DNA of 58,355 bases from Candidatus Nanopelagicales bacterium (GTDB taxonomy: Bacteria; Actinomycetota; Actinomycetes; S36-B12): NCBI GenBank assembly GCA_044240195.1, contig JBIHZX010000004.1, forward strand, positions 1 through 58,355. The letters are read 5' to 3'. The notes beneath the pieces are model-generated. The model did not search any database. It had not been told where the DNA came from and saw only the letters and a program-made list of their open reading frames with translations. The translations under genes and the position numbers were made by a program. Shown piece after piece: positions 423 through 37,331 of this stretch; within the stretch, counting starts at the first letter, position 1, and every line of letters starts with the position of its first letter.

Positions 423-481
423 CAAACCCTCCTCATCTAGGGAAACCTGACGGCCCCTGAACCTTACGACTAAAGACCTGA

Positions 482-522
482 TGTCTTGTGGGTGTTGAAC
501 AATGTCCAACACCCACAAGACA
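482..522 (-). terminator. 16-bp perfect inverted repeat between the DsrE-family gene and nthB (terminator/attenuator or mRNA-stabilising stem)
   Basis: TGTCTTGTGGGTGTTG (482-497) / CAACACCCACAAGACA (507-522), 7 nt after the stop at 529. Confidence 0.6.
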
Positions 523-528
523 AAGCAA

Positions 529-1017
529 CTACAGGGTCCAGGTGTTCATCTGGAATGCGCCCTCACTCCAAGCTGTCAGGGCGGTGTCGAGCACGTCAAG
601 CGGGTTGAACGGGATAACCCCTGGAATGAGGTCATCTTCGCCGAATCCGTAAAGAGCACCCATCGCAAAGCGACATGCGTAAATCTTCGCGCCTTCTTTC
701 ATGAGCGTCTTGAGCTGCTCATTGATTGCGAGGTGACCTGGGAATGCGGCCATCCCAACACCGGGGTAACCGCGAGTGCCTGAGGCTGCGAGAACTCCGG
801 GTCCGTAGAGGACGATGCTGACTTCGAACCCTTTACGCACCAAACGTGTTGACGTCAACAAGTTGACGAGCAGAACCGATCCTTCGTAAGGAACAGTGTG
901 GATAAAAATGTATGCTTTCTGTCCGGGTTTGGCCTTGATGTCAGGGAATAGTTTTTCCTCTGCATTAAATAGTGACTCTCCGTCTGCCGGTAGAGTTCTG
1001 ATTACGGTTTTTGGCAT
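529..1017 (-). CDS. MSMEG_0572/Sll0783 (NitB-like) DsrE-family protein
   Basis: Motifs HTVPYEGSV, LVRKGFE, LYGPGV, AFPGHLA, IYACRFAMGALYG and PLDVLD. Start placed at ATG 1017 after a GGAGGA RBS. Confidence 0.85.
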   Translation of the reverse strand: MPKTVIRTLPADGESLFNAEEKLFPDIKAKPGQKAYIFIHTVPYEGSVLLVNLLTSTRLVRKGFEVSIVLYGPGVLAASGTRGYPGVGMAAFPGHLAINEQLKTLMKEGAKIYACRFAMGALYGFGEDDLIPGVIPFNPLDVLDTALTAWSEGAFQMNTWTL

Positions 1018-1047
1018 TATTCCTCCATCGTGTTGTGTTGTGTTCAA

Positions 1048-1299
1048 CTAGATCGCCGGTCCCTCCGGCGACGTCTGTTTGGCCCAGTTCTTCCTGTGGC
1101 TTCCGGGCATGGCCACCATGATCCGTCTGCGTAAGCCCCACGGCATGATCCGGTAAATCGGAATGAATACACCGGTCCAAAAAAATTGACCACTCGTGCT
1201 TGGCGTCTCAATTCCGTGATTGCGTGCAACACGTGCTTGTGCATCACGCAATAAATAAAATTGGGCATTCTCGCGCAGCCACTTCGATGGTGATTTCAT
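1048..1299 (-). CDS. Small basic Trp/Arg-rich hypothetical protein
   Basis: ATG overlaps the upstream stop codon (TGATG), implying translational coupling within the operon. Confidence 0.65.
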   Translation of the reverse strand: MKSPSKWLRENAQFYLLRDAQARVARNHGIETPSTSGQFFWTGVFIPIYRIMPWGLRRRIMVAMPGSHRKNWAKQTSPEGPAI

Positions 1300-2642
1300 C
1301 AACGCCCCAACTGCGACGCAACACCCTTTTGGGCAGCCACCGCGATCGGCTCGTTGAGTGCACCTATTGGTGGTGAGTAAACATTTTCCATGGTGGCCAG
1401 GTCATGCAGCGTCAATCCAGCCTTGACCGCTACTCCGAGGAAGTCAGCTCTTTCTTTGATTCCTTCTCCGCCCACCATTTGGGCTCCGATCAGGCGTAGT
1501 GTTCCTTTTTCGGCGATGAGCTTCACTCGGACTTTTTTAACGCCCGGGTAGTAACGAGCTCGTGAAATACCGTCAGCAACCGCCACCACGTGCGGTATGC
1601 CCAACGCATTCGCTGTCACCTCGCCCAGTGCCACTCCGCCGATCATCCACTTCCCAGCCACCATGCCCCAAGGAACATAAACAGGGTTGTACGTTCGGTT
1701 CCCGCCAGCAGCATTAGCGCCGGCCACTTTCCCCTGGGCGTATGCGTGGCTCCCGGTGAGACCTTGGAGCGGTAGGCCGCCGAGGCCGTGGGGAATCTCG
1801 CACACATCACCACTGGCCCAGACGCCGACCGCTGATGTCTGCATGCCCCCGTCAACGATAAGCCCCCCCGTGCTGCCAGTTTTTAATCCAGCCGCGATCG
1901 CCAATTCATTATTGGGGACCTTGTGCGTGGCCACCACAACAAGATCGCATTCAATGTCTCCCCCTGATGTGCGAACTCCACGTACGGCACCTGACTCATC
2001 GCCGAGAAACTCTTCCAAGGTCGTGTTCCAGTGCATGGTGACACCGAGCTCCGTCCATGACTCATGGACGAGTTCGACAATGTCGGGATCTGCCACTTCC
2101 CCGAGCGCCCATGGGTTCGGGTCGATCACATGTGTTTCGATTCCCCGGTGAGCCAGAGCTGTGATCATCTCAACGCCGAGCGGACCCGCCTCAACAACGA
2201 CCGCCTTTTTAACGGTGTCTAGACGTTTATCCCACTCCATTGCCTCACGGATATTCTTCACGTAATAAAGACCATCAAGGTCCCCACCGGGCACTCCCGG
2301 GTTCGCATAGGAGAAACCCGTCGCGATGACGAGAGAGTCGTAGTGCATCGGCTGACCAGATTCGATCTGAATGGTCTTCGATTTTGTGTCTAATGAAGTG
2401 ATCTTCGTCTGGTACCGGATATCAATGCCTGCATCAACGTAAGCCTGCTTATCAGCCAGAAATAGTGCTTCAAAACTTGGAATTTCTTTTCCATGTACGA
2501 AGGGAATTCCGCAGGGGCTGTAGGCAACGTCTTCATTTTCCGTGAAGACGGTAACTGATGCCGAGGGGTCCACTGCTTTGGCACCACCGGCGGCGCCGAG
2601 TCCCGCGCCTCCGCCTCCGATGACGATAATATGCTGTGCCAC
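1299..2642 (-). CDS. FAD-dependent pyridine nucleotide-disulfide oxidoreductase (NADH oxidase/CoA-disulfide reductase type, single Cys)
   Basis: GGGGAG FAD motif, YSPCG redox Cys, ATG motif, GD motif, C-terminal YSPP dimerisation motif. Confidence 0.88.
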   Translation of the reverse strand: MAQHIIVIGGGGAGLGAAGGAKAVDPSASVTVFTENEDVAYSPCGIPFVHGKEIPSFEALFLADKQAYVDAGIDIRYQTKITSLDTKSKTIQIESGQPMHYDSLVIATGFSYANPGVPGGDLDGLYYVKNIREAMEWDKRLDTVKKAVVVEAGPLGVEMITALAHRGIETHVIDPNPWALGEVADPDIVELVHESWTELGVTMHWNTTLEEFLGDESGAVRGVRTSGGDIECDLVVVATHKVPNNELAIAAGLKTGSTGGLIVDGGMQTSAVGVWASGDVCEIPHGLGGLPLQGLTGSHAYAQGKVAGANAAGGNRTYNPVYVPWGMVAGKWMIGGVALGEVTANALGIPHVVAVADGISRARYYPGVKKVRVKLIAEKGTLRLIGAQMVGGEGIKERADFLGVAVKAGLTLHDLATMENVYSPPIGALNEPIAVAAQKGVASQLGR

Positions 2643-2770
2643 TTATGCTCCCGTCAATTAAAAAGTTAAGATCCTTAGACATACACGATAGACTACTTTT
2701 CATACACTATGTTGAATAATCCAAAAAAAGTTCATAAGCTTTTTTTACCGGTTTTGGGCACCAAACACCC

Positions 2771-3421
2771 ATGAATCAACGAAGGGATGTCCCAGTGGCG
2801 CGCACCTCCACTAAAAGTGAAACCGCAATAAAGCCGAAATCGGATCAGCCCCTCGAGCTCGACGAAATCGTCAGCCTGATCGGTCCAAAAATTGCAGGAT
2901 TGCGCAAGGCTCAGGGCCTATCCCTTCAGCAACTCGCTTCGACGAGTGACGTCTCGGCCGCTGCAATTCATAAGATTGAACGCAGTGGGATGGTCCCCAC
3001 GGTGACAACGCTTCTGAAGTTGGCGGGTGCACTTGGGGTGCCGGTGAGCTACTTCGTTGCCGAAGACGACCCGCACCCTGAATCCGTACACCTCACCAAA
3101 TCTGAATCCCGGAGACCCGTTTATACGCCACATGATGGTCTCGCCCTAGGTGGCATCAGTGGGTCCTACCGCCAGTTTCAAGCGGCGGCAGCAGTCGCAA
3201 GTATGTCGGCGGGAGCAAATAGTGGTGTCAAACTACTCAAGCATCCAGGGGAAGAGTTGGTTTACGTACTAAGCGGGCGGGTTCGCTTTACCGTCGGTAA
3301 TGATGAGTACGCCCTCAAAGCAGGGGATTCCTTACACTTCAGGGGGGATGTGCCGCATCACTGGGAAAATTTAGGCAAGGTGACTGCCCAGTTGATCTGG
3401 CTCGCTTTGAGAAATGGCTAA
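2771..3421 (+). CDS. XRE-family HTH + cupin transcriptional regulator
   Basis: LRKAQGLSLQQLA...IHKIERS...PTVTTLLKLA HTH; HPGEELVYVLSG...GDSLHF...PHHWEN cupin. Confidence 0.9.
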   Translation: MNQRRDVPVARTSTKSETAIKPKSDQPLELDEIVSLIGPKIAGLRKAQGLSLQQLASTSDVSAAAIHKIERSGMVPTVTTLLKLAGALGVPVSYFVAEDDPHPESVHLTKSESRRPVYTPHDGLALGGISGSYRQFQAAAAVASMSAGANSGVKLLKHPGEELVYVLSGRVRFTVGNDEYALKAGDSLHFRGDVPHHWENLGKVTAQLIWLALRNG

Positions 3422-3429
3422 TAGTTGTG

Positions 3430-3828
3430 TCAATTCCCCCGATTGACAACGCTAATCTCCGGTAATGCTTTCAACGTATTAGTCACGTAGCACACACGCT
3501 CGGCTGATGCAATGAGTTTGGCGGCGGTCTCCTCGGGGACCGGAATTCTCACACTGATCTGAATTTGGCTGAACCTGGTTCCTTCATACGTGCCCGTCAC
3601 ATCCACTTCAATACTTGATAATTCCAGATCTCTTTTACGGGCCGCATATGCAAGTGACAGTACGAAGCACGATGCCACAGCGCTCAGTAGCAGATCTGTC
3701 GGCGCAGGACCTGTGTCCGTGCCCCCTACCCGAACAGGTTCATCGACCCGAGACGAAAACTCGCCGGCCATCACGTCAACTTGAAAGCCACCAAGCCATC
3801 GTGCGGACACCAATCGATCTGCAACCAT
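3430..3828 (-). CDS. OsmC-family protein
   Basis: DEP..GGTDTGPAPTDLLLSAVASC and AERVCYVTNTL two-Cys pattern. Confidence 0.85.
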   Translation of the reverse strand: MVADRLVSARWLGGFQVDVMAGEFSSRVDEPVRVGGTDTGPAPTDLLLSAVASCFVLSLAYAARKRDLELSSIEVDVTGTYEGTRFSQIQISVRIPVPEETAAKLIASAERVCYVTNTLKALPEISVVNRGN

Positions 3829-3919
3829 GTAATCCACCTCATATAATTCATCTCCACTTAACTACTATGGATTTACATTAAAGTATACAAATGCCAGTCA
3901 CGGCCGGTATTGTTTTCGC

Positions 3920-5005
3920 GTGGACCGCACTCGAATCCGTGAACTTTTTTTTCTGTTCCTTGCCGTAGCCGCGCTCAATATCGCTGGGTGGGGGACATAC
4001 GCCTATTACTTACATGCTGAACCAACTAATACTGCCTATGTGGGAGTAGGGCTAGTGGCGTACGTCTTAGGGATAAGACATGCCTTTGATGCGGACCACA
4101 TCGCAGCGATTGATGACAGTGCAAGATTGATGGTCAACCAGGGACGTCGACCGATTGGTTTAGGGTTCTACTTTGCAATCGGCCACTCGACAGTGGTCTT
4201 GCTGATGTGTGTGGGAGTGAGTGTTCTCGCCGGAACCTTCGTCTCGTCCGGCCAAATCTATCTGCAAGATATTGGTGGCCGGATCGCCGCTCTGGTGGCG
4301 GCCATTTTTCTCTTAGGCGTCGGGCTTTTAAACTTTAAGGTTTTACAACGGCTTCGAAATACCAAACGAGATCTGAAAAGCGGTGCCATTAGCCCTGCTG
4401 AGTTGGAATCCCGTCTCTCTGGCGCATCGCCACTTGCTCGACTCCTTGGTGGCAAAAAGATGAACCGGCTGCAATCAAGTTGGCAGATGTTTCCCATTGG
4501 TTTCATCTTTGGACTCGGCCTTGAGACTGCTTCAGAAGTCACGCTACTCAGCCTCTCCGCCGCGGGTGCCGCGGATGGTCACCTACCAATTGGCGCCATT
4601 CTCGCTTTGCCCCTTTTGTTTGCGGCAGGTATGACGCTGTGTGATTCCATCGATTCGGTCACCATGGTTCATGCCTACAGTTCAGCAAGCACGACGGCAC
4701 ACGACCGACTGTTTTTTAACATTCTCATGACGGGAATCACAGCGACAATCGCGACATTTGTTGGGGCGATCTACCTCTCGCAGGTTCTCGTCGATGAAGT
4801 TGGAATCCGCGTTCTCGAACCAATCGCCCAAATAAATGAGCATTTTGAAAGACTGGGTTACGTCATTGTTTCCGTCTATTTTGTCGTGTGGGCGTGTGCA
4901 TTTTGGGTGTGGCGTAGATCAAAGAAACGAGCCGAGTCCGATGTCGTTGGCGAGTACCGCAGGGCCATAAGTGCGCCGTATGCCAAGTCCAGTCCTGATG
5001 AGTGA
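3920..5005 (+). CDS. NiCoT (HoxN/HupN/NixA/NhlF family) Ni/Co permease
   Basis: Signature RHAFDADHIAAID, FAIGHSTVV, GFIFGLGLETASE, LFAAGM; multiple TM helices. Confidence 0.92.
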   Translation: MDRTRIRELFFLFLAVAALNIAGWGTYAYYLHAEPTNTAYVGVGLVAYVLGIRHAFDADHIAAIDDSARLMVNQGRRPIGLGFYFAIGHSTVVLLMCVGVSVLAGTFVSSGQIYLQDIGGRIAALVAAIFLLGVGLLNFKVLQRLRNTKRDLKSGAISPAELESRLSGASPLARLLGGKKMNRLQSSWQMFPIGFIFGLGLETASEVTLLSLSAAGAADGHLPIGAILALPLLFAAGMTLCDSIDSVTMVHAYSSASTTAHDRLFFNILMTGITATIATFVGAIYLSQVLVDEVGIRVLEPIAQINEHFERLGYVIVSVYFVVWACAFWVWRRSKKRAESDVVGEYRRAISAPYAKSSPDE

Positions 5006-5724
5006 CCCAGCTCCGCGAGGCGGGCGCGGGATGCGCGCGCTGCTCCTTCCTGTCCGTGAGAGCATTCCTGCAAAAGAGTGTGAAGTGTTTCAATCGACTG
5101 CCCTACCGCAGCCCACCTCAGAAATGCGCGCGAAATCTCATGGGTAGCTGCAGTACGCGCGATCTCCTGGCGAATCACCCGGTTATGACCACCAAGTATC
5201 GATTCCACTGCAAGAATTCCCGCTGCGACATCGTCACCTGCTGGCGTTAATCCAATCCCGCGGCCCATGACCGATTCGCAGGCACCGGCGAGATCACCCA
5301 CTTGCAAGAAACCCGCCAGTTCTTCCTCCAATAATTCTTCCTCCAATAAGTGGCCCGGTGGTGTACCTAAAGTGAGATCGGGAACGTGTCCCAACACGGT
5401 TCCAAGAAGTCCGGTCGCTCGTTTAATATCCGGATTCGCCGCGGGTACCCACACATGCTCAGAGACGGACACGACTTGATCGACCACGCGCAATTCTCCA
5501 TCGCGTACTTCTACCGGATCGCCTAAGGAACCCAGAGGCAAAGTGTTCATTCGGGCATGGAGGGGGCCCGAAGGGACGCTAGCGAGGGTGAGTGCGAAGA
5601 CGTGTGCGCCTACTCGGATATACATCGCCTTTCGAAAGCTCGCAATGACCCGGCCCGCCGAGCTTTTGTGAAGCCCTTCGAGGACTCCCTCCCCCGTGTC
5701 AAGGGGAAGGGTCACTCCGTTCAT
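4876..5724 (-). CDS. DUF2877 (YlbF/AllH-like) protein
   Basis: GRGIGLTPAGDD and GHSSGLD motifs; coupled to the DUF1116 gene. Confidence 0.85.
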   Translation of the reverse strand: MNGVTLPLDTGEGVLEGLHKSSAGRVIASFRKAMYIRVGAHVFALTLASVPSGPLHARMNTLPLGSLGDPVEVRDGELRVVDQVVSVSEHVWVPAANPDIKRATGLLGTVLGHVPDLTLGTPPGHLLEEELLEEELAGFLQVGDLAGACESVMGRGIGLTPAGDDVAAGILAVESILGGHNRVIRQEIARTAATHEISRAFLRWAAVGQSIETLHTLLQECSHGQEGAARASRARLAELGHSSGLDLAYGALMALRYSPTTSDSARFFDLRHTQNAHAHTTK

Positions 5725-7145
5725 TCCCCTTGATTAACAGGGTTAACAAGGTCAACAAGGGCTTGCCCAAACCCTTCAAGCGGCGCCGTCGCAACGCCAG
5801 CCCCTATCTGCCCTACCCCTGACGAAAGATGAAGAATTCCCGTGGTGACCTTGGGGCTAATTCCCGTCTCAACCACTTTTCGCACATCGACGCCGAGTGG
5901 GGTGCCTCGAAAGCTCATCGTCGGCAATTTGAATCGGCTGCTTTCTGACACACATATCCGTCTCATGTCTTCGGTGGCCCGGGCAGCATCAGACATCGAC
6001 CCACCGAGAAAAGCCGCCACCGCTGGAGACCCTGCAGCAGCAGCCCCTCCAAGCCCAATCAGCTCGAGTACCGCACTGTCGCCCATATCAAGAGCAGCAT
6101 CTTGGGAACTGAAACCTGCGTAATACAACGCATCTGCCACCGGAGGAGCCGGACAAATATGCCAACGGGGTGAATCCCCCACCTTCACCCCAAAAGTGGT
6201 CCCGTTGCGCGCCATGGTCGTGACAATCGTTGAACCAGATACTTGCTCCGCTGCGAGCATCAGTGATTTTGCCGCCGCCATAGCAATTGTCAGGAAGAAG
6301 AGGTGATTCTTGGACAAATAATGAGCGAACGCCACCGAGCCTTCATCATTTCCCAATCGGGCAATTGATGTGAGCACATCGCGGATTAAAAGATTTGTCG
6401 TCGCCTGCGTACGCATGTGAACGTCGTCGCCCATCTGCACGCCCTGTGATGCTAAGGACAGGATGTCAATCGGACCACTTTCTGTGAGGATCTGTGCGAT
6501 TCTCGGCTGGGCAACATCCCGCAAGAAGATCAGCCTTTCTATCGCCGCTGGTGTCTCACGCCCAAACCACGGAACGTCCCCCGGACCCTGGTTGACGGGC
6601 GCGAATCCAACTGTCCCGGACTCCGCATTCTCAGCTATCCACACCGGGGTCGTAGGTCCGATGGCTGAAGCCATCGGTACCACGGTCCCATGATCATTGG
6701 CGGCAGCAAGTGCGACGGAGCCCTCGGCGAGCAATCGATCGGCTGTTTCAACGTCTTTCGCCCACCCTTCCGCAACTGTTGCAGCGCGCATCGATCGTCG
6801 TACCGGATCACATACGAATTCATAAGCAATGGGTGGACCGGCATGCAGCAGGGTGCGATCGGGGAGTGCAGGCAATGCATCCCGTGCGGACGCCACTCCA
6901 ATGAGCATCGGCACCCCCTTGTCAATCCTGCGAATTGCCTCGGCATTCGCCTTGTCGTATTCCAGTGAATTCATCGCGTAAGAATCAGTGAGTGCCCTGA
7001 GAAGAACCGGTGAATTTCCCGAAGGAACGCGCCAGTCCACGTGAATCACCTCAGCGTCTTGTTCACGGATCGCCTCCGCGAACAGTGGCAGTCCAATGTT
7101 GATTACTGCCGCGTTCTGTGGCAACTTATGCAGGGTTGTTTCCAT
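5721..7145 (-). CDS. DUF1116 (YlbE/AllG-like) protein with an N-terminal FdrA-C-terminal-like segment
   Basis: LLHAGPP, MGDDVHMR, TMARNGTTFG, DMGDSA, GVGQIGAG motifs; N-terminal VINIGL...VIHVDWR. Confidence 0.87.
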   Translation of the reverse strand: METTLHKLPQNAAVINIGLPLFAEAIREQDAEVIHVDWRVPSGNSPVLLRALTDSYAMNSLEYDKANAEAIRRIDKGVPMLIGVASARDALPALPDRTLLHAGPPIAYEFVCDPVRRSMRAATVAEGWAKDVETADRLLAEGSVALAAANDHGTVVPMASAIGPTTPVWIAENAESGTVGFAPVNQGPGDVPWFGRETPAAIERLIFLRDVAQPRIAQILTESGPIDILSLASQGVQMGDDVHMRTQATTNLLIRDVLTSIARLGNDEGSVAFAHYLSKNHLFFLTIAMAAAKSLMLAAEQVSGSTIVTTMARNGTTFGVKVGDSPRWHICPAPPVADALYYAGFSSQDAALDMGDSAVLELIGLGGAAAAGSPAVAAFLGGSMSDAARATEDMRRICVSESSRFKLPTMSFRGTPLGVDVRKVVETGISPKVTTGILHLSSGVGQIGAGVATAPLEGFGQALVDLVNPVNQGE

Positions 7146-7162
7146 ATTCTTGACTCACTTCC

Positions 7163-8617
7163 TTATTGTTGAACGATTTCTCGGGCGCGGATCAGCAGAT
7201 GGGATTCCGCCGATTCAATATTGTGCTGCTCAGTTTCCAAGAGTGTGCGCAAATCAAGGGCCGCCGCCAGAAGACTTTCAGCCATGGCGGTGACGGTGTC
7301 TGGGGCTGCACCTCCGATCGACTTTCGCGATTGGATCAAAGTCATTGGATCAAAGATCTCGTCCAACTCGCCGGCCTCGACTTGTTTCGGATCAAACCCA
7401 CCGTCCTTGAGCGCCCACGTGATGTCCTCCGCGGAAATTCCTCGATCCCCCTCCGCGGCGTGCGTAAGCGCACTGCTAACGACACGGTGAGCAGTGAGGT
7501 AGTCAAGTCCACACGAACGCATCAGGAGGTGGGCGACATCAGCGGCCTCGGTATTCGCACCTTCGATTGCCGATTTCATGCGAGCCTCGTTCACTACGAG
7601 GTCACGCACCACTGAGGTCAACAATCGCGTTACCTGACCGGCCAAGGCTAATGATCGAGGAAGTTCTCCGTAGGCATAAATGTATGTATCACTGCGAGCC
7701 GAGGGAGCCTTGGAAAGGGCCAGTTGTCCCGTCAGACGACCGATCAGAATCCCAGTTGAGCCCCTGATCACCGAAAGTGCGTACGGATTACGTTTTTGGG
7801 GCATGAGCACACTGGGTCGCACCGACGATTCCCCCAATGACAAGAAGCCGAACTCTCTGCTAGCAAAGATTTCGAGGTCTTCGGCGAGCCGATCCTGACC
7901 CAGCGTCAAAGTGGTGGCGGAAAAAAGTACATGCAAAAACGGATCCGTCTGCCACATGGCGTCGCGGACATGCTCGATCGGTTTATTGAATCCGAGGTTG
8001 TGGGCCGCGTGTATCCGGTCCCGAATAACTACCGACCCATTTGCGCCACCGGATCCGGCCACGCTCGAGTTAACATGAACGTACTCAGCAAGTAATCGGT
8101 TAGCGTCTCGAAGTATCGGATCAGCAAACGACAATAAATAGTGACCGAATGTCGAGGCCTGCGCCGGTTGGAGATACGTATAGTCAGGCATTAGTGAGTC
8201 GGAGTGCTCGATACTACGCGCGCAGATCGCCTCGATCAAATCGCACGAGTCCTGTGTCAGCGCGAGCACCTGCTTGCGAACCACTAGTCGGTAGGCCGTG
8301 CGAACTGCCTCCCGTCGCGTTCGACCAGTTCGTAGTGAACCACCGACCGGTCCTATGAGCTCGACAAGAAACTGTTCTCGACACGTCACCATCTCACCGA
8401 TGGACGGGTCATAATTAATTTCTGAGCTGGATAAAGATTCAAGGTGAAGAAGACCGCCGAGCAGGGTCCGTGCCTCCGCACGCGAGATCGCTCCTGCATC
8501 AAACAAATCCAATGCATGTGCAATATCTGCGAGATTAAGTGCATTGTGCAGAATGGGAGCATCGGCAATCTCCCACGCGTACCCGGATTCAGCGAGTTCC
8601 GGCGAGATATCAAACAT
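7163..8617 (-). CDS. Argininosuccinate-lyase-like aspartase/fumarase superfamily protein (XcbC-like candidate)
   Basis: ArgH-like layout (LRTGRTR, MPDYTYLQPAQ, SVLMPQKRNP) with divergent catalytic motifs. Confidence 0.8.
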   Translation of the reverse strand: MFDISPELAESGYAWEIADAPILHNALNLADIAHALDLFDAGAISRAEARTLLGGLLHLESLSSSEINYDPSIGEMVTCREQFLVELIGPVGGSLRTGRTRREAVRTAYRLVVRKQVLALTQDSCDLIEAICARSIEHSDSLMPDYTYLQPAQASTFGHYLLSFADPILRDANRLLAEYVHVNSSVAGSGGANGSVVIRDRIHAAHNLGFNKPIEHVRDAMWQTDPFLHVLFSATTLTLGQDRLAEDLEIFASREFGFLSLGESSVRPSVLMPQKRNPYALSVIRGSTGILIGRLTGQLALSKAPSARSDTYIYAYGELPRSLALAGQVTRLLTSVVRDLVVNEARMKSAIEGANTEAADVAHLLMRSCGLDYLTAHRVVSSALTHAAEGDRGISAEDITWALKDGGFDPKQVEAGELDEIFDPMTLIQSRKSIGGAAPDTVTAMAESLLAAALDLRTLLETEQHNIESAESHLLIRAREIVQQ

Positions 8618-9611
8618 TTTTGGCTACCACGCTTTCACGGCTGCCCGTCACGGTAAGTGATTCAATCGCCGCCGGCAATCCTCCTGTTAGCCACCACACA
8701 ACAGTGTCATTGGACTCACGGGTTATCCGAGAAATTTCGTCGTAAGTCGGGAGACCGTATGCCGGGTCGAGAAGAATTCCAACTCGCCGGAATGCTTCAT
8801 CGCGTGCAAACGCACCATTTTTATCTAGCTCGTGATCATGGGATCCCGCTGCGTCAATGATGGTGACATTGGTCATCGATGGTGCCCCTCGTCCCAAAAG
8901 TTTCGAGGTTTGCGTTGACAAGTCAGTAATGACTCCACGCATCTCATCCACATTTCGGCTTACTGACACCCCAACAACTTTCCACATCGCGCCCAAGAAA
9001 TCACTGCCTGCAAGGAATCCTGCAATCGATGCACCGGACCCAACGGGAAGCACCACGCTTACTTGATTGGGATCGGTCCCCCTCGCGTTGCATTGCTCAT
9101 GCAGTTCAATTGCTGCTCTGGCAAAGCCCAAGCCACCCACTGCAGTGGCACCGCCGCGGGGAACGGGGTACGGCACTTGGCCATCGGCCGCTAGCTCCGC
9201 TGCCCGCCGTTCAACCTGTTCATTTATCACCGAGCGGTCTAGCCCGGTGAAGTGAATTACCGCTCCAGTCGCCTGCGCTACTAACAAAGGTACGGGCCAC
9301 ACATCCATGGGATTTCCTGCCACTTCGATTTCACAATCGAGGCCGACTGCCGCTGCCGCATGCGCACAAGCTCCAATAAAATTAGATCCTGCCGCTCCAC
9401 CGGTAATGACAACATTGGAGTCGCATTTGAGCGCGTCCGCCATGAGATATTCCAGTGGCCTTACTTTGTTGCCGGCCAGCCCGAAACCCGTGAGGTCGTC
9501 GCGTTTGAGAAGCACGGGCGCAGCCGCGTCGAACTGCCACGGCGCCGCGAGGTGCAGGGCTGTCGGAAATTGACCCAGGTGAGTTCGAGGAATTCGATCA
9601 GTCGGATTCAC
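8610..9611 (-). CDS. PLP-dependent D-cysteine desulfhydrase/ACC deaminase family enzyme (XcbE-like candidate)
   Basis: LKRDDLTGFGLAGNKVR (PLP lysine), PRGG, GSGAS, LLDPAY, WLTGG. Confidence 0.85.
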   Translation of the reverse strand: MNPTDRIPRTHLGQFPTALHLAAPWQFDAAAPVLLKRDDLTGFGLAGNKVRPLEYLMADALKCDSNVVITGGAAGSNFIGACAHAAAAVGLDCEIEVAGNPMDVWPVPLLVAQATGAVIHFTGLDRSVINEQVERRAAELAADGQVPYPVPRGGATAVGGLGFARAAIELHEQCNARGTDPNQVSVVLPVGSGASIAGFLAGSDFLGAMWKVVGVSVSRNVDEMRGVITDLSTQTSKLLGRGAPSMTNVTIIDAAGSHDHELDKNGAFARDEAFRRVGILLDPAYGLPTYDEISRITRESNDTVVWWLTGGLPAAIESLTVTGSRESVVAKNV

Positions 9612-10981
9612 TGGCGCCCATTTCGATCAGTGACAGACTGGGTTTCGATCAGTGACAGGCAGTGGTCGATAAGGGGACCGGTGGTGGGCTCGGCACTCAT
9701 CCACTCGAGCACGATTTCCGGTGACACGTTGGCTGCTGCGGCAATCAATGCTGCAATCGACTGAATATCTTCGGTCCCATCTCTTTCAGAGAGAGCCACC
9801 TGCATCAATCCCTGTGCCTGATGTTTGCCCATCTGTGAAGATAGAGCCCGCAGAACCGACTCTGTGTTTCCCGTGCCTGAGGATTCGAGATTGCGTAGCA
9901 TCTTCTCCGGATGAACGCGCAGCCCAGCAACAAGTTCTGCCGCCACGCTAGCTGACTTGCCTGTGCACATGGCGACCTCGGGCAACATGGCCCACTCGGC
10001 TTTCCAGCTTCGGCCATCTCGTTCATGACTGGACACGACACCCTCAACAAGAACTCCTGCCGCGGCACGCGCTATCCGCGACAAGGTGTCCAGGTGCTCA
10101 CTCAATTCCGGGTTTTGCTTGTGCGGCATGGTGATGCTACCGACTGCGTTGACATCTCTTGGTTCGCTGAGTTCACCAATTTCTGGTCGAGCCAACTCGT
10201 AGATTTCGTTGCCGATCCGAGCAAGTGATGATGCCACCGTCGCCATGGTTGTCCCGAATTCTGCGATCCTGTCTCGGGTGGCCGTCCATGACATACCAGG
10301 GTCACCCAGTGCGAGGAGTTCGCAAAATCTGCTCCGTAGTTCCAAGCCCTGATCGGGAAAAAAAGCGAGTCCGCCGGTCGACCCGGCGAGCTGCCCCACG
10401 CTCCACCGCGCCCGCGCCCCGTCAATCCGTTCTATGTGACGATTAATCTCGTCCGCCCACGTTGACACTTTGAATCCGAATGTCACCGGTGTACCCGGTT
10501 GGCCATGGGTGCGCCCAGCAATTGGAGTGTCGCGGTGTTTTTTTGCCAATTCCACACACGAATCACGTAGCTTCACAAGGTCCGCACGGATTAAGTCACC
10601 GCTATCGCGCATGATCATGCCAAACCAGGTATCTGTCAGGTCTTGAACCGTAATTCCAAAGTACACGTACTCTCTGGACGAACTATCGAGAATCTGCTGC
10701 AGTCCACGGATGAGTCCCAGAGTCGAGTGTGATGTTCGCCGGGTTTCCGAACTGATGAAATCTTCATCCAGTAATTCCACCCGTGCTTTGCTCGCGATAC
10801 CCTCGAATGCAGCGTCGGGGATAATTCCCAGTTCGGCTTGGGCTTGTGCCAACGCCACGAGAATATTGAGCCAAGCCTGCAGTCGATGCTTCTGATCAAA
10901 CATTCGATCGTAATCAGGTGTACTCCATCCATGTGCATACATGGATGAAGCGGTCAAACGGTTGTCCACGCCGGGTCCCAT
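9608..10981 (-). CDS. Adenylosuccinate-lyase-like aspartase/fumarase superfamily protein (XcbD-like candidate)
   Basis: GRTHGQ, TFGFK, RDR, GSITMPHKQNPE, HERD motifs. Confidence 0.85.
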   Translation of the reverse strand: MGPGVDNRLTASSMYAHGWSTPDYDRMFDQKHRLQAWLNILVALAQAQAELGIIPDAAFEGIASKARVELLDEDFISSETRRTSHSTLGLIRGLQQILDSSSREYVYFGITVQDLTDTWFGMIMRDSGDLIRADLVKLRDSCVELAKKHRDTPIAGRTHGQPGTPVTFGFKVSTWADEINRHIERIDGARARWSVGQLAGSTGGLAFFPDQGLELRSRFCELLALGDPGMSWTATRDRIAEFGTTMATVASSLARIGNEIYELARPEIGELSEPRDVNAVGSITMPHKQNPELSEHLDTLSRIARAAAGVLVEGVVSSHERDGRSWKAEWAMLPEVAMCTGKSASVAAELVAGLRVHPEKMLRNLESSGTGNTESVLRALSSQMGKHQAQGLMQVALSERDGTEDIQSIAALIAAAANVSPEIVLEWMSAEPTTGPLIDHCLSLIETQSVTDRNGRQ

Positions 10982-11880
10982 GCACGTGCCAATTCATTGA
11001 TCGCTTCACGGATGTCAGCCAAAGATGCACCCCATGGCACGATCACCCGGCCGTTCTCAATTTCTATTGACTCCTCGAGGAGACAGCACTTTGTAATTGT
11101 TGCCATTCCCGAGGATTCTTCGCGTTCCCTTGGGCAGAAGGACACCATCGGCGGGCGGTCGCCATAGAACCACTCATGTATTTGTGCGGATCGTTCACAT
11201 CCGACCATGGTCCAATCTTCGCGATCGGGACGTTGGTCTAGGTAGGAAGTGCGGGCACCATCAATTTCCGTGTCAGCGCCCCGGCAGGGAAGGAGGTAGT
11301 GCCCACTCGGAATTTTCGATCCAAACGAATCTAACGTCAATGCATCGAGATGCGCGACTATCGGGGGTAGGTCTTCGGCCACCTCGAGGAGCCGGCACAC
11401 CTGATCAAACAGTTTCGCGGGAGTCGGGGGGATTACTTCAGTGACGTTGATGTTTAGTGGTTGTGGGTTGAGAATAAAACTGACGTGGGAGTACAGACCT
11501 TCAACAACGACGGCCTTCGCTTGAGGGGCGTAATTCGCTGCGGCGCGCGCTAGATTGGACGGGACTGCCGTGTCAATGCTCGCATCGGCGACGAAGGAGC
11601 ACTCAGTCGGATCTGCCAGGATCTCGACACTCGTCACGGGCGAAAAGAGTGGCACCGGGTCCGCCCTCTGGACCGCTGCCAGCCAAACCCCATTCGGCTC
11701 ATGGACCACGATGAAGCGAGTTCGTCGGTACACCTCTCTACCGGTGAAGTATTCAGTGAGCGACTCCCATGTGAAAGAGTCTGTGGAGTGGGACACGGAG
11801 ACACCTCGGTAGGCGCTGGGAACCACATTCATGCGAGATCGAAGAAGGACGTGACCTGAATCTGTCCTGGTTTCGGTCAC
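10954..11880 (-). CDS. Hypothetical protein with Cys-rich C-terminus (possible metal/Fe-S binding)
   Basis: 308-aa ORF coupled to both neighbours; LPCR, VGCERS..IH, FCPR, TKCC. Confidence 0.75.
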   Translation of the reverse strand: MTETRTDSGHVLLRSRMNVVPSAYRGVSVSHSTDSFTWESLTEYFTGREVYRRTRFIVVHEPNGVWLAAVQRADPVPLFSPVTSVEILADPTECSFVADASIDTAVPSNLARAAANYAPQAKAVVVEGLYSHVSFILNPQPLNINVTEVIPPTPAKLFDQVCRLLEVAEDLPPIVAHLDALTLDSFGSKIPSGHYLLPCRGADTEIDGARTSYLDQRPDREDWTMVGCERSAQIHEWFYGDRPPMVSFCPREREESSGMATITKCCLLEESIEIENGRVIVPWGASLADIREAINELARAWDPAWTTV

Positions 11881-12662
11881 CTGCGCACTCCTGAGGATTG
11901 GGAAATGCCAACGGCAACCAACGCGGTATCTGCGCGCAGTCCTAAACGAAGAGTTTGTAAGGGAAGTAGATCCTCGGGCGCGACGTTGCCCACATTCACT
12001 TCTGGTCCATGTGTATTGATGAACCAGGCTTGTTGATCTTTTCGAGGCGCCTCAAAAAGCACGCGATCGAGCCCTGCCGCCAGCAATGCCGCGTCGATGA
12101 CTTCAGTTTGTGGAGTCCCGTGGGAGTCATAAACACCAACGGTCCCACTCTCCCGTCCTTCAGCCACAATGTATTCGGCACCAGCAACCAAGTCGCCCGT
12201 GATTTCCGAATGCCATTGAGTTGGGGTGAGAATTCGTTCGGCACTCTTGTACCCGGTTTCGGCAAATACTCGAAATGACCGCGCCGATGTGCGAATGAGT
12301 TCCCACTTTTCTTCCATGCTCATATCTGCCACACCTCGAGAAACCTCAACCGCTGTGAATCCGGCCTGTTCCGCCCAATTGAGGCATTCACTTACACGTC
12401 CCTGCGACCAAGCGATCTCCAACAATGTGCCTCCGAGGCAGGCTGTGATCCCGTGTTCGCGTAGGAGTCCAATTTTTGACGCCAAATGTTTCTCTACATA
12501 AGCAGTCCCCCAACCGAACTTCCACACATCGGCAAACTCCGCGTACGAAGCCAGTTGGCTTTCCATCGATCCAAGTGAAATTCCCTTATCCAGCACGTGT
12601 GTCAGCCCGATGGAGCGTGGCTTCTCAGGCAGAACCGGAAGGCTCAGGAAATTGTTCGACAT
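11877..12662 (-). CDS. comA: Phosphosulfolactate synthase (ComA/XcbB)
   Basis: GLTHVLDKG, KFGWGT, GGTLLE, EGRESG, FEAP, NVGN, LRLGLRADT. Confidence 0.92.
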   Translation of the reverse strand: MSNNFLSLPVLPEKPRSIGLTHVLDKGISLGSMESQLASYAEFADVWKFGWGTAYVEKHLASKIGLLREHGITACLGGTLLEIAWSQGRVSECLNWAEQAGFTAVEVSRGVADMSMEEKWELIRTSARSFRVFAETGYKSAERILTPTQWHSEITGDLVAGAEYIVAEGRESGTVGVYDSHGTPQTEVIDAALLAAGLDRVLFEAPRKDQQAWFINTHGPEVNVGNVAPEDLLPLQTLRLGLRADTALVAVGISQSSGVRR

Positions 12663-12678
12663 GTGTCCTATACTACGC

Positions 12679-12714
12679 GTACTTTCACTTTACGACATAT
12701 CTACCCGTGAATAT
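12679..12714. promoter_or_regulatory. Divergent promoter with AC-N9-AC-N9-AC array (possible GlnR site)
   Basis: AC at 12681, 12692 and 12703 (11-bp phasing) between comA and the AIR-synthase-like gene. Confidence 0.3.
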
Positions 12715-12745
12715 TCTGCGCATTGTTACTACATTGGAGGACTCC

Positions 12746-13753
12746 ATGGGCCCGAAGAGCACTGCCCGACAACAACTTGATGACGTTGCAGCAGCTGTGG
12801 CAGGTAATAGCGCCATTGCGGCCAAGCGCGAAATAGGTCTCGTCAGCGAGGCCTTAGGGTCGTCGGGTTTCGTCGAGGGTCCCGGGGATGACGGCGCGGC
12901 CATCGCGATTGGTCACACACTAGGAATCGTGTGCGGAGAAGCAATGTGGCCACCATTTGTCGCAGCAGACCCCCGCGGGGCTGGAATAGCCGCAATTCTT
13001 GCCAACGTAAACGACGTTGCTGCGATGGGTGGCCTGCCCTTGGCAATTGTTGACACCATAGCTGCGGATGAAGCCACCGCGCGTGAAATTCTCAGCGGTC
13101 TGGCCTACGCCTCGTCCTTGTACCGAGTTCCCATTGTTGGCGGACACCTCACGCTCACAGATGGGCAGCCCAGTTTGTCTGCATTTGCGCTCGGCCACAC
13201 TGACAAACTTTTATCGACCACGAATGTTATGGCAGGTCAAGATCTTGTCGTGGCCGCGTGCATTGAAGGATCAATGCATCCAAAATTCCCGTTCTTTGCT
13301 TCATTTACTGAACGAGGCGACAGTCTCGGTGATGACGTGCGTCTTCTGGCACAGATTGCCAAAGATGGCATTGCTGTCGCCGCCAAGGACATCAGCATGG
13401 CCGGGCTTATCGGCTCACTGGCCATGCTCTTGGAGTGGGGGTCCTTCGGTGCAGAGCTCAACCTCGACGTGCTCCCAAGGCCTGAAGGTGTCTCGCTGGC
13501 TGACTGGTGCAACTGTTTCCCATGCTTTGGGTTCATCCTGTGCTGTGAACCATCCAGAACTAATGAATGCCTCGAAGTTTTCACTCGCACCGGACTCGCA
13601 GCCGCCAAAGTTGGGTCCATAAATGGCTCGGGCAGCATCGAGATCCTCGCTGGCGGAGAGCGCCGAGAGGTTCTGAATTTGCTTGAGGATACGGTCACGG
13701 GCTTAGTTCGTTCCCCTAGCAACACCGCAGCAGTTCCCCTGAAAAACATCTAA
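12746..13753 (+). CDS. AIR synthase-related protein (PurM/SelD/HypE superfamily; Sll0787/NitF-like)
   Basis: GPGDDGAA, ANVNDVAAMGG, IVGGH, AKDISMAGLIGS motifs. Start at ATG 12746 after GGAGG; the ORF-track start at 12476 overlaps comA. Confidence 0.87.
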   Translation: MGPKSTARQQLDDVAAAVAGNSAIAAKREIGLVSEALGSSGFVEGPGDDGAAIAIGHTLGIVCGEAMWPPFVAADPRGAGIAAILANVNDVAAMGGLPLAIVDTIAADEATAREILSGLAYASSLYRVPIVGGHLTLTDGQPSLSAFALGHTDKLLSTTNVMAGQDLVVAACIEGSMHPKFPFFASFTERGDSLGDDVRLLAQIAKDGIAVAAKDISMAGLIGSLAMLLEWGSFGAELNLDVLPRPEGVSLADWCNCFPCFGFILCCEPSRTNECLEVFTRTGLAAAKVGSINGSGSIEILAGGERREVLNLLEDTVTGLVRSPSNTAAVPLKNI

Positions 13754-13874
13754 TTTTTTCGTTTTTTTTACGTCAAAATATCGAATTGGCTGACTTCGGG
13801 GTCCGAAATGTGTACTTTTGTGTACACATCAAGTCGTATGATGAATATGCGGCTTACAATCATTGGAGATGAGA

Positions 13875-14405
13875 ATGCCCCCTATTACAATGGTGTTCAT
13901 AATTACAGGACTTGCAGTCTTCACGCAAGCGATGTTCTTTCTTGGCATCGGAGCAAGTGCTGAGGAAGGTAAAAAGAGCCCGATTATCCCAGTTGGATAC
14001 ATTTCTGTAATCGCAGGAATCGTCGACCTGGTTGTCGGTATTTACATTACCGTGGTTCGGCCAATAGAAGATGATCCTTCACTGCTGCTGGCTGGCCTTA
14101 TCGGATTCTACGGTCTGTTCTTCATTGCCTTAGGACTCGCCGAAATTCTGGGCCTTGACCTTCGGGTTATCGGCAATCTAGCTATCCCAACCGCGATCCT
14201 TCCGCTGTTTTGGATTAACTTCTTCTCGGGTAGCACAACCTTTACGTTGATTCTTATCTGGTGGGTCATCGCATTCCTCTCCATTACGTTGACCACGTAC
14301 GGGAAGTTGCAAGCACGGGCCTTGGGAGTCATCTTGATGCTCACCGCGCTCTTCACATTCTTCCTCGTTCCAGTATTCCTAGTCATGGGTTGGAACCTGC
14401 CTTAA
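13875..14405 (+). CDS. AmiS/UreI-like urea/amide channel
   Basis: About 175 aa, six hydrophobic helices, GLDLRVIG motif resembling AmiS/UreI; nitrile hydratase context. Confidence 0.6.
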   Translation: MPPITMVFIITGLAVFTQAMFFLGIGASAEEGKKSPIIPVGYISVIAGIVDLVVGIYITVVRPIEDDPSLLLAGLIGFYGLFFIALGLAEILGLDLRVIGNLAIPTAILPLFWINFFSGSTTFTLILIWWVIAFLSITLTTYGKLQARALGVILMLTALFTFFLVPVFLVMGWNLP

Positions 14406-14412
14406 TCGCTGA

Positions 14413-14476
14413 CGCCTCCGACTGTTCGCTCTCTTATCTGATGGCACAGTCTTATCTGATAGCACAGTCGGAGGCG
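14413..14476. repeat. 13-bp inverted repeat enclosing an 18-bp tandem duplication
   Basis: CGCCTCCGACTGT / ACAGTCGGAGGCG; CTTATCTGATGGCACAGT (14433-14450) and CTTATCTGATAGCACAGT (14451-14468). Confidence 0.75.
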
Positions 14477-14578
14477 CTTCGGCTCATTGTTTCGCTGTAG
14501 CTTGGATCAATTACCCGTAATTTGTTAGGGTGATGCAAACGAGGATGCGGCTCACCCCGAAACATTGATGCACATAGA

Positions 14579-35058: not shown

Positions 35059-35102
35059 ATTCAACAGCACTTGGCTCCTTGATCGCCTTGGGTTCACCTT
35101 GC
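35059..35102 (+). promoter_or_regulatory. PHO-box-like 11-bp repeats upstream of ppk1
   Basis: In-phase units ATTCAACAGCA, GATCGCCTTGG and GTTCACCTTGC. Confidence 0.5.
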
Positions 35103-35129
35103 AGTACCTCCTCATGGCACGATACGCGC

Positions 35130-37304: not shown

Positions 37305-37331
37305 ATCTTGCTCACGGGCAATGTCAAAGCC

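Follow-up and report, generated by a model that had tools for sequence, protein, structure and literature searches.

In this work we analyzed a stretch of 58,355 nucleotides from a Candidatus Nanopelagicales bacterium (assembly GCA_044240195.1, contig JBIHZX010000004.1), referred to at its full length as the window, and in particular an operon in it whose products are homologous to the Xcb enzymes that make coenzyme M (CoM), a cofactor best known from methane-making archaea. Five of its genes constitute a true Xcb-type set, as judged by sequence comparison, with CoM as the very probable, predicted product. This set is decoupled from alkene metabolism and is embedded in a supercluster of Nit1C-like, carbamoyl-transfer and thiol-redox genes. 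Taken together, the results make it likely that the operon, which comprises seven genes, holds an orthologous Xcb pathway that does not serve alkene or epoxide metabolism and is a module of a Nit1C-like supercluster of about 25 kb, with CoM as its dedicated small thiol. The pathway itself is already known from Xanthobacter, and what is new here is its genomic context; the link to the supercluster, which an earlier sequence-only reading of the same DNA had not seen, is more interesting than the identity of the pathway.

Organization of the operon

Window positions 7163-12662 hold, on the minus strand, five overlapping open reading frames (ORFs) in the order comA(xcbB)-xcbA-xcbD-xcbE-xcbC. The xcbA/xcbD overlap spans 28 bases (10954-10981), and the remaining three junctions (11877-11880, 9608-9611 and 8610-8617) read GTGA, GTGA and ATGTTTGA. 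The sequence-only reading had described these ORFs and overlaps, and all its coordinates are exact. The operon extends past 7163, and positions 4876-12662 form one translationally coupled operon of seven genes, comA-xcbA-xcbD-xcbE-xcbC-allG-like-allH-like, as follows (model scores with their cut-offs, where given, in brackets).

11877-12662, minus strand: comA (xcbB), phosphosulfolactate synthase homologue, first gene of the operon, 261 amino acids (PF02679 252.6 bits, positions 4-243 of 243)
10954-11880, minus strand: xcbA, homologue of the [2Fe-2S] reductase that forms CoM from sulfoethanethioaldehyde, 308 amino acids (NF052538 335.6, cut-off 150; PF24830, DUF7714, 301.9)
9608-10981, minus strand: xcbD, PurB-like lyase homologous to 3-sulfopropionylcysteine synthase, 457 amino acids (NF052536 544.4, cut-off 600, against 244.2 for purB)
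8610-9611, minus strand: xcbE, pyridoxal phosphate (PLP) enzyme with the fold of D-cysteine desulfhydrase and 1-aminocyclopropane-1-carboxylate (ACC) deaminase, 333 amino acids (NF052537 205.2, cut-off 450, against 149.5 for ACC_deam_rel, the D-cysteine-desulfhydrase family)
7163-8617, minus strand: xcbC, ArgH-like lyase homologous to the phosphate-eliminating, sulfoacrylate-forming enzyme, 484 amino acids (NF052535 416.4, cut-off 575, against 235.5 for argH)
5721-7145, minus strand: allG-like gene (DUF1116), sixth in the operon, 17 bases downstream of xcbC (PF06545 213.4 bits)
4876-5724, minus strand: allH-like gene (DUF2877), seventh in the operon, overlapping the allG-like gene by ATGA (PF11392 73.3 bits)

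The order of the first five genes is kept in 11/11 genome loci on contigs long enough to show it, in Nocardioides JS614 and M. chubuense NBB4, and in many of 80 metagenome loci (the best 80 of 444 XcbA-encoding stretches, ranked by likeness to the window XcbA; 38 of them are at least 8 kb long). Because the same order recurs in genome and metagenome loci, the arrangement from comA to xcbC is not a matter of chance. In relatives, too, the allG-like gene follows xcbC and the allH-like gene follows the allG-like one, and the AllG-like protein is 57% identical to the DUF1116 protein of Methylocystis. Scans of positions 1-14500 for promoters and terminators gave counts at the shuffled expectation (7 vs 8.8; 13 vs 13.3).

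The enzymes are of the Xcb type

According to the accessible part of Wu et al. 2022 (PMC9457059), XcbB (ComA) of Xanthobacter autotrophicus Py2 converts phosphoenolpyruvate (PEP) and sulfite into phosphosulfolactate, which loses phosphate by the action of XcbC to become sulfoacrylate. XcbD then attaches cysteine, XcbE, the PLP enzyme, turns the resulting 3-sulfopropionyl-cysteine into sulfoethanethioaldehyde, and XcbA, a [2Fe-2S] protein without characterised homologue, reduces this last compound to CoM. The relevant literature on XcbA, DUF7714 or sulfoacrylate, as far as accessible, consists of that paper and PMC8727900. By homology, the window proteins would act in the same sequence: ComA would join sulfite and PEP into phosphosulfolactate, from which XcbC would eliminate phosphate to leave sulfoacrylate; addition of L-cysteine by XcbD would give 3-sulfopropionyl-cysteine, from which the PLP enzyme XcbE would release sulfoethanethioaldehyde, to be reduced by the Fe-S protein XcbA to 2-mercaptoethanesulfonate (CoM). 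The sequence-only reading had proposed the Xcb pathway, and all five enzyme homologues are present, one more than it recognised: the 308-residue ORF that it left unnamed is, by its NF052538 score of 335.6, the homologue of XcbA, the terminal Fe-S reductase of the pathway.

An Xcb or ComA model is the best curated match (Pfam, NCBIfam) of each of the five ORFs, and the identities to the Xanthobacter proteins are 40.6% (XcbA), 34.3% (XcbB), 37.4% (XcbC), 41.9% (XcbD) and 37.4% (XcbE). XcbA passes its NCBIfam cut-off and XcbC, XcbD and XcbE score below theirs; ComA reaches 226.8 on TIGR03849, under the cut-off of 280. Nocardioides JS614, which we take to be a CoM-dependent ethene degrader, also falls below the NCBIfam cut-offs for XcbC (377.7) and XcbE (314.8), and the sub-threshold scores found here are therefore not disqualifying. 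The NCBIfam Xcb models are narrow 'exception' models, too narrow even for the JS614 enzymes. ComA is 47% identical to that of Methylocystis, with 45 invariant columns among 16 sequences.

One could take these proteins for plain ArgH, PurB and DcyD or ACC deaminase, or for spare copies of them, encoded beside a sulfolactate-type comA and without any role in CoM formation, as their generic Pfam domains (Lyase_1, PALP) and the names used in public records would suggest. Records of homologous clusters do read 'argininosuccinate lyase', 'adenylosuccinate lyase family protein', 'pyridoxal-phosphate dependent enzyme', '1-aminocyclopropane-1-carboxylate deaminase' and 'hypothetical protein', a mis-annotation that the sequence-only reading had foreseen. 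However, the true argH (C80:4213-5562, 563.6 bits) and purB (C107:6000-7325, 394.7 bits) lie elsewhere in the genome, both above cut-off, so that the operon lyases are not its only copies, and separate argH and purB genes are also found in 5/5 relatives checked. In a maximum likelihood tree of 42 lyases (quick search, with the Shimodaira-Hasegawa-like approximate likelihood ratio test, SH-aLRT, as sole support measure and one truncated XcbC row excluded), the window proteins fall inside the XcbC clade (15 rows, SH-aLRT 97) and the XcbD clade (15 rows, 92), which include the Xanthobacter enzymes and are separate from ArgH (6 rows, 99) and PurB (6 rows, 99). An 18-row tree likewise separates 16 XcbE sequences, that of Xanthobacter included, from two DcyD-like paralogues (SH-aLRT 100). 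Thus both trees, whose outgroups are few and all from one order, place the lyases and the PLP enzyme with the characterised XcbC, XcbD and XcbE and apart from ArgH, PurB and DcyD-like proteins, which goes against the grouping that the sequence-only reading had named as a refutation of its proposal.

The residues that tell the families apart agree with the trees. The window XcbC has the XcbC residue at 22/22 class-specific columns (invariant in 15 XcbC and differently invariant in 6 ArgH sequences), including Tyr148 in place of the His of the ArgH T-H-L-Q motif, and the window XcbD has the XcbD residue at 35/35, counts that are generous because the ArgH and PurB comparison sets are small and come from a single order. 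With an XcbA-family gene present in addition and ComB not found, the chance that the operon consists of spare housekeeping copies is virtually nil.

Of the archaeal route to CoM (ComA, ComB, ComC, ComDE) the window shares ComA alone, the later steps being assigned to enzymes of the aspartase/fumarase fold and a PLP enzyme. ComB (PF04029) was found in 0/4 genomes of the genus, that of the window included, with the control positive in 7; this is in line with the earlier claim that the route is not the archaeal one, ComC and ComDE having had no separate search. A preprint on Desulfobacterota describes, in its accessible part, archaeal-type comABCDE and not xcb.

Five cysteines of XcbA are invariant in 16/16 sequences (C199, C228, C249, C265 and C266) and are candidates for the predicted [2Fe-2S] ligands. 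In XcbE, K49 lies inside an invariant GGNK motif, whose lysine is presumably the PLP-binding residue. The five xcb genes are under purifying selection, with ratios of non-synonymous to synonymous substitution rates (dN/dS) of 0.09-0.26 against two relatives (purpose-written Nei-Gojobori script).

The structure of XcbA was predicted with a mean confidence score (pLDDT) of 86.7. Foldseek returned no match with a TM-score above ~0.25, the best VIA-align match (Z 7.2, within noise) was confined to residues 140-306, which paired with generic alpha/beta domains, and barely covered the N-terminal half, and a sequence search of the PDB gave 0 matches at E up to 0.01. A search of 1.84 billion sequences for the XcbA family found 612 representatives with E up to 0.001 and, at the stricter limit of 1e-30, 197. 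One XcbA-family gene (G054:C4:185169-186034) lies in two pieces with an in-frame TGA and is probably a pseudogene.

The operon lies in a supercluster with Nit1C-type genes

XcbA-family matches occur in 21/201 genomes sampled from the order, and two types of locus, A and B, were distinguished. The window is of type A, split across contigs in its own assembly. A type A supercluster is ~25 kb long, keeps the order of its genes and consists of a gene resembling aminoimidazole ribonucleotide synthetase (AIRS-like), divergent from the run comA-xcbA-xcbD-xcbE-xcbC-allG-allH; NicO, OsmC and helix-turn-helix (HTH)-cupin genes; a flavoprotein resembling coenzyme A (CoA)-disulfide reductase (Cdr-like); and MSMEG_0572. 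Further members are the nitrile hydratase beta, alpha and activator genes, the MSMEG_0565 glycosyltransferase, FdrA, carbamate kinase, the MSMEG_0568 radical S-adenosylmethionine (SAM) protein and a GCN5-related N-acetyltransferase (GNAT) of the Sll0786 type.

Type B loci are of the classical kind. Of the five inspected (L020, L021, L022, L026 and L029), 4/5 encode a Cdr-like flavoprotein divergently from comA and lack AllG and AIRS; in the loci compared, the Cdr-like protein shares 50-56% identity with the flavoprotein that JS614 and NBB4 encode next to comA. JS614 (plasmid pNOCA01), NBB4 and the type B clusters share with the window the order comA-xcbA-xcbD-xcbE-xcbC and the association with a single-cysteine Cdr-like flavoprotein, but theirs belongs to another subfamily, 31% identical to that of the window. 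The neighbours in these clusters are CoA-transferases and short-chain dehydrogenases/reductases (SDRs), with a homologue of 2-ketopropyl-CoM oxidoreductase/carboxylase (2-KPCC) in L022 and L026, where this second flanking oxidoreductase is 51-54% identical to the Xanthobacter enzyme; AllG/AllH, AIRS-like, MSMEG_0572 and OsmC genes are missing from them. The Xanthobacter xcbABCDE cluster (pXAUT01) encodes all five enzyme families, in the same clades as the window proteins, but in the order A-B-C-D-E, whereas the window has B-A-D-E-C, and it directly follows 2-hydroxypropyl-CoM lyase, 2-KPCC and two SDR dehydrogenase genes, none of which was found in the window genome.

PMC7815647, in its accessible part, connects Nit1C with cyanide assimilation and with nitrogen limitation, and describes what it does as obscure since the 2005 description. 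The supercluster resembles Nit1C (nitB-H; sll0783-0787; MSMEG_0565-0572) in having MSMEG_0572/NitB, the MSMEG_0568 radical SAM protein, the MSMEG_0567/Sll0786 GNAT, the MSMEG_0565 glycosyltransferase and an sll0787-like AIRS homologue. It differs in that no nitrilase was found in the window type (the freshwater lineage has a nitrile hydratase in its stead), although the Methylocystis version retains one, and in that it has a Cdr-like flavoprotein and adds the xcb, FdrA/AllG/AllH, carbamate kinase and OsmC modules. Homologues of all components of the E. coli oxamate carbamoyltransferase AllFGH (FdrA, YlbE, YlbF) and of carbamate kinase are present as well, but the allG- and allH-like genes of the window form an operon with xcb genes, not with allantoin genes. 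No report of a link between xcb and Nit1C was found in open-access papers and bioRxiv. The one paper that mentions both phosphosulfolactate and nitrile hydratase, on a sponge metatranscriptome, was judged unrelated from its listing; nothing relevant on CoM in Nanopelagicales or acI stood among the 20 of 8,967 papers listed, and the accessible part of PMC11210273 mentions methyl-CoM reductase and no other link to CoM.

The association recurs at each level of sampling. Within the order, MSMEG_0572 scores above cut-off in 9 sampled genomes; these are exactly the ones with a low-scoring class of AllG, and all 9 have XcbA, on the same contig as MSMEG_0572 in 8/9 (in G191 the two are split over two contigs). 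Five congeners without XcbA have neither an above-cut-off MSMEG_0572 nor an AllG orthologue, G148 having distant AllG-family matches only (26-32% identity). Among 401 genomes sampled across the phylum, MSMEG_0572 occurs in 16, XcbA in 11 and both in 7, in each case on a single contig at a distance of 6-12 kb; under independence ~0.4 genomes with both would be expected, but related genomes are not independent. Five of these 7 genomes were fetched and all have the same supercluster. The four genomes with XcbA alone comprise one type A locus cut by a contig end and three of type B-like structure, two of which have a neighbour resembling hydroxypropyl-CoM dehydrogenase (HPCDH-like, 54%) or epoxyalkane:CoM transferase (EaCoMT-like, 31%). 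The supercluster is thus the commoner context of XcbA in Actinomycetota among the sampled genomes (8/11), and it is also common among the metagenome relatives, which come from samples of several kinds.

In the metagenome loci of at least 8 kb, one accessory marker or more was found in 34/38 and three or more in 31/38, while markers for 2-KPCC, type B Cdr, EaCoMT and nitrilase were found in 0/38; the ranking favours type A, and this set is therefore no gauge of how common the two types are relative to each other. Four long metagenome loci (L090, L095, L110 and L112) carry no accessory marker. The closest loci in genome collections have XcbA proteins 60-95% identical to that of the window.

The supercluster was found in four actinobacterial families and on a plasmid of Methylocystis iwaonis. 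The latter carries OsmC-comA-xcbA-xcbD-xcbE-xcbC and, divergent beside it, genes annotated as Nit6803 nitrilase, MSMEG_0568 radical SAM protein, Sll0786 GNAT, sll0787 AIRS-like protein and Pnap_2097; a cupin regulator, an FdrA homologue, the MSMEG_0565 glycosyltransferase, DUF1116, MSMEG_0572 and the flavoprotein are encoded nearby. Just upstream of the flavoprotein-MSMEG_0572-DUF1116 part of this plasmid (L166, 6054-8489) lie genes for a cytochrome bd-type oxidase; such oxidases are cyanide-insensitive, which may bear on the link between Nit1C and cyanide.

A genuine CoM pathway might merely have been co-inherited with the Nit1C- and AllFGH-like genes on a genomic island, with no biochemical coupling between them and with CoM serving some other enzyme. 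Congeners indeed have either the whole block or none of it, and in Methylocystis it sits on a plasmid, as a mobile island would; in the phylum sample, 9/16 genomes with Nit1C-type markers have no XcbA, and XcbA of the classical type occurs without such markers. Against this, the linkage survives reshuffling of gene order between families and phyla, the allG- and allH-like genes are translationally coupled to xcbC, in L088 the flavoprotein gene lies between the allH-like gene and a relocated xcbA, directly upstream of the latter, and an alternative CoM consumer was not found. We regard mere co-inheritance as improbable and a functional module as the likely arrangement.

Some loci depart from the usual composition. 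In G179 (L032 and L023) and G076:C65, type A superclusters have no xcbA in its usual place between comA and xcbD, the latter two being adjacent in G179, and a few kb away lies an xcbA of the classical type (392-400 bits; 35% identity to that of the window), which looks like the displacement of one type of xcbA by the other. A protein of ~215 residues with no family match is conserved at 27-36% identity from Actinomycetota to Methylocystis (L031 6632-7279, L038 3791-4456, L083, L140, L157, L159 and L160) and is an unnamed conserved member of the supercluster. The lake metagenome-assembled contigs of L010, L015, L016 and L019 are titled 'Bifidobacterium breve', at odds with their gene content, probably through mislabelling on submission.

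Neighbouring genes of the window

The members of the supercluster that flank the operon in the window are the following.

12746-13753, plus strand: AIR-synthase-like gene, sll0787-related, divergent from comA (TIGR04049 259.6, under the cut-off of 321.3)
3920-5005, plus strand: NicO/NiCoT-family nickel-cobalt transporter, convergent with the allH-like gene (PF03824 198.2; TIGR00802 279.3)
3430-3837, minus strand: OsmC-family protein, thiol peroxidase fold (PF02566 72.7 bits)
2771-3421, plus strand: HTH and cupin regulator, PuuR-like (HTH_3, Cupin_2), 65% identical to the Methylocystis cupin protein
1299-2642, minus strand: single-cysteine flavoprotein of the CoA-disulfide reductase/NADH oxidase family (TIGR03385 241 bits, cut-off 578.8; Pyr_redox_2 and dimerisation domains)
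529-1047, minus strand: MSMEG_0572/Sll0783 (NitB) nitrogen-starvation-response family protein (TIGR04044 199.9, cut-off 109.85; weak DsrE-like match of 21.9, below 22.7)
3-518, minus strand: nitrile hydratase beta subunit, C-terminal part, cut by the contig start, 93% identical to the orthologue of G064 (which has both NHase-beta domains; TIGR03888 152.2)
13863-14405, plus strand: small membrane protein with a weak DUF981 match (PF06168 20.7, cut-off 29), doubtful member

Contig C23 abuts the first base of the window and carries carbamate kinase, FdrA and the MSMEG_0565 glycosyltransferase, together with the nitrile hydratase genes for the activator, the alpha subunit and the first part of the beta subunit. 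A GNAT gene lies at the end of contig C108, and a radical SAM gene was not found in the assembly; in the congener G064 the radical SAM protein (TIGR04043 380.2), the GNAT (TIGR04045 91.9) and the MSMEG_0565 glycosyltransferase are all above cut-off.

The flavoprotein is the most constrained product of the block (dN/dS 0.04-0.06). Its Cys44 is invariant in 12/12 sequences of type A and classical loci, the JS614 and NBB4 flavoproteins beside comA included, and the motif presumably marks a redox-active cysteine; the Methylocystis flavoprotein is 59% identical, cysteine motif included. The nearest structures (6pfz, 3cgb, 4fx9 and 8a56) are NADH oxidases and CoA-disulfide or CoA-persulfide reductases. 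The best 25 of 46 NCBIfam matches are to CoA-disulfide reductase, NADH oxidase and relatives, with the MSMEG_0569 (NitH) model not among them and no accession-based search made for it. The score of 241 against a cut-off of 578.8 rules out a true CoA-disulfide reductase. On the simplest reading, the flavoprotein is a candidate reductase that would keep the thiol produced by the neighbouring enzymes reduced by acting on its disulfide or persulfide.

The OsmC protein is 50% identical to the OsmC encoded before comA in Methylocystis and has two cysteines invariant in 8/8 sequences; thiol peroxidases of the OsmC fold keep two cysteines. The HTH-cupin regulator is conserved across supercluster loci. 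The ORF of the AIRS-like gene is open from 12476, and its probable start is ATG 12746 after GGAGGA, by alignment to a 331-residue orthologue; the gene is divergent from comA in 23/38 metagenome loci of at least 8 kb. The transporter gene is present in freshwater lineages and in 7/80 metagenome loci, and its 3' end overlaps that of the allH-like gene by 130 bases (4876-5005), an overlap kept in L009. The small membrane protein gene, whose membership of the system is doubtful, is next to the AIRS-like gene in L009-L018 and present in 5/80 metagenome loci, as a conserved neighbour in freshwater lineages only.

FdrA scores 396 (cut-off 433), and the carbamate kinase scores 319 on arcC (cut-off 358) and 274 on PRK12352, where it passes the cut-off of 266. 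By analogy with the AllFGH system, the combination of FdrA/AllG/AllH and carbamate kinase suggests carbamoyl-group chemistry that would yield ammonia and ATP. The nitrile hydratase alpha subunit has a CTLCSC site, which we take to mark a cobalt-type enzyme, and a cobalt-type hydratase fits the neighbouring nickel/cobalt transporter. Nitrile hydratase was seen in 5 loci of the freshwater lineage, and nitrilase in Methylocystis only: the Nit6803-family enzyme (TIGR04048) was found in 0/80 metagenome loci by BLAST marker and above cut-off in 0/5 distant carrier genomes, and the genome of the window gave nothing beyond one 33% partial match. Nitrile hydrolysis as the core chemistry of the system was down-weighted on account of this distribution.

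Points against a dedicated CoM module and possible functions

Several observations weigh against an orthologous CoM pathway that functions as a module of the supercluster. Identity to the characterised enzymes is only 34-42%, and the enzyme roles of the supercluster-type proteins are predicted from their sequences. XcbE is the weakest member of the set, with 205 bits against 300-315 in classical clusters, and its dN/dS is the highest among the five xcb genes. Metagenome loci of soil type (L140, L141 and L142, also L106, L118, L123 and L138) have no xcbE match, and in L140 xcbD and xcbC lie too close together for the gene to fit between them, which casts doubt on CoM always being the end product; these variants either use another enzyme for that step or make a different product. 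Conserved linkage is no proof of functional coupling, and the related genomes that were counted are not independent.

Moreover, McrA was not found in the genome, the MetE-like fold of epoxyalkane:CoM transferase (PF01717) gave 0 matches in a search whose control was positive in 9 genomes, and a tblastn search with the Xanthobacter 2-KPCC gave a 25% identical disulfide oxidoreductase (DSOR) as its best match. CysH was not found with one query (JS614), and the sulfite-reductase domain was found in 0/11 genomes of the genus. In addition, the window encodes MshA (25710-26954; TIGR03449 614.9 bits, above cut-off), so the organism is not short of a small thiol.

The absences are soft, as the assembly (1.93 Mb in 139 contigs) is a draft with a completeness of 93.5%. 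Searches with tblastn found no match to the Xanthobacter epoxyalkane:CoM transferase in the genome and generic SDR matches only for the hydroxypropyl-CoM dehydrogenases; di-iron monooxygenase (PF02332) gave no match, but its control was also silent everywhere, so this result is uninformative. As McrA, epoxyalkane:CoM transferase and 2-KPCC were not found, the known uses of CoM are unsupported, and the genome holds a complete Xcb-type gene set and, at 93.5% completeness, no known CoM-dependent enzyme that we could find. CysD and CysNC are present. Upstream of cysD-cysNC on contig C80 (L154, 4030-4812) lies an ORF of 260 amino acids with no NCBIfam match at E up to 1e-10; cysH often sits upstream of cysD, and this ORF is hence a possible sulfite-forming candidate. 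The organism appears to make mycothiol too, as MshA is present. CoM as a replacement for a missing mycothiol pathway was rejected on the same ground.

That no sulfite source was found invites the thought that the enzymes work catabolically and break down an environmental sulfonate such as CoM or sulfolactate to sulfite, carbon and nitrogen, and the carbamate kinase, the set resembling oxamate carbamoyltransferase and the nitrile hydratase do hint at nutrient scavenging. However, CoM is free of nitrogen, neither a sulfonate transporter nor a sulfite-handling gene was seen in the block, and no characterised Xcb step is reported as reversible in the accessible part of PMC9457059; we consider this direction very improbable.

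The divergence of XcbE also bears on a diversion of the pathway, in which sulfoacrylate, 3-sulfopropionyl-cysteine or CoM would be elaborated by the glycosyltransferase, the GNAT, the AIRS-like and the radical SAM proteins into another sulfonated thiol or a natural product. XcbE is the most divergent Xcb member, the supercluster-linked XcbE proteins, that of Methylocystis included, form a subclade of their own (SH-aLRT 96), and some variants lack xcbE. The MSMEG_0565 glycosyltransferase is distantly related to MshA and BshA and a GNAT is present; the combination of a glycosyltransferase with a GNAT resembles the mycothiol and bacillithiol enzyme sets. Besides, the NCBI annotation gives Nit1C-type genes the Gene Ontology term 'biosynthetic process', and the accessible part of PMC7815647 mentions a possible biosynthetic function. 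On the other hand, the window and most loci retain all five Xcb homologues, XcbA with every invariant cysteine, and the same gene order, with a related flavoprotein that has a single cysteine, is seen in the classical clusters of JS614 and NBB4. Diversion to another product is, in our view, rather unlikely.

We therefore return to CoM as the probable product of a supercluster whose modules would be the Nit1C-type genes, FdrA/AllG/AllH with carbamate kinase, OsmC, the HTH-cupin regulator and the Cdr-like flavoprotein. That CoM, or a CoM conjugate, is the dedicated thiol of a Nit1C-type nitrogen-starvation system is a more tentative proposal, which we put forward as a possibility below even odds, and it can be worded in two ways. 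CoM could, being nitrogen-free, replace or supplement nitrogen-containing thiols under nitrogen limitation, with the Cdr-like flavoprotein as its disulfide reductase and OsmC as a peroxidase. Alternatively, CoM could carry a one-carbon nitrogen unit: S-cyano- or S-carbamoyl-CoM could be hydrated by nitrile hydratase or nitrilase where present, FdrA/AllG/AllH could pass the carbamoyl group to phosphate, and carbamate kinase could then give ammonia and ATP.

If true, this would be a third role for CoM, beside methane and alkane metabolism in archaea and alkene and epoxide metabolism in a few bacteria, and it would place CoM in a methanotroph, in actinobacteria of soils and in the aerobic plankton of fresh waters. 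The physical linkage of Nit1C to a defined thiol-cofactor pathway offers a concrete, testable handle on the function of Nit1C, with Methylocystis iwaonis as a cultured carrier. Current annotation pipelines name the genes argininosuccinate lyase, adenylosuccinate lyase family, PLP-dependent enzyme or hypothetical protein.

Other features of the window

A search of the genome for small-subunit ribosomal RNA returned none. The window also encodes CarD, IspD, IspF, CysS, an RlmB-like methylase, a PhoR-like kinase and a polyphosphate kinase, genes which, with that for MshA, mark the organism as a bacterium; the order carD-ispDF-cysS is typical of Actinomycetota. At 35079-39607, the polyphosphate kinase, a CYTH/CHAD protein and a fusion of NUDIX and histidine phosphatase domains look like a polyphosphate-handling operon. 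Finally, a ferredoxin-reductase-like gene (44000-45187) precedes an ORF of 505 residues (45191-46708) that matches nothing in Pfam or NCBIfam at E up to 0.001.

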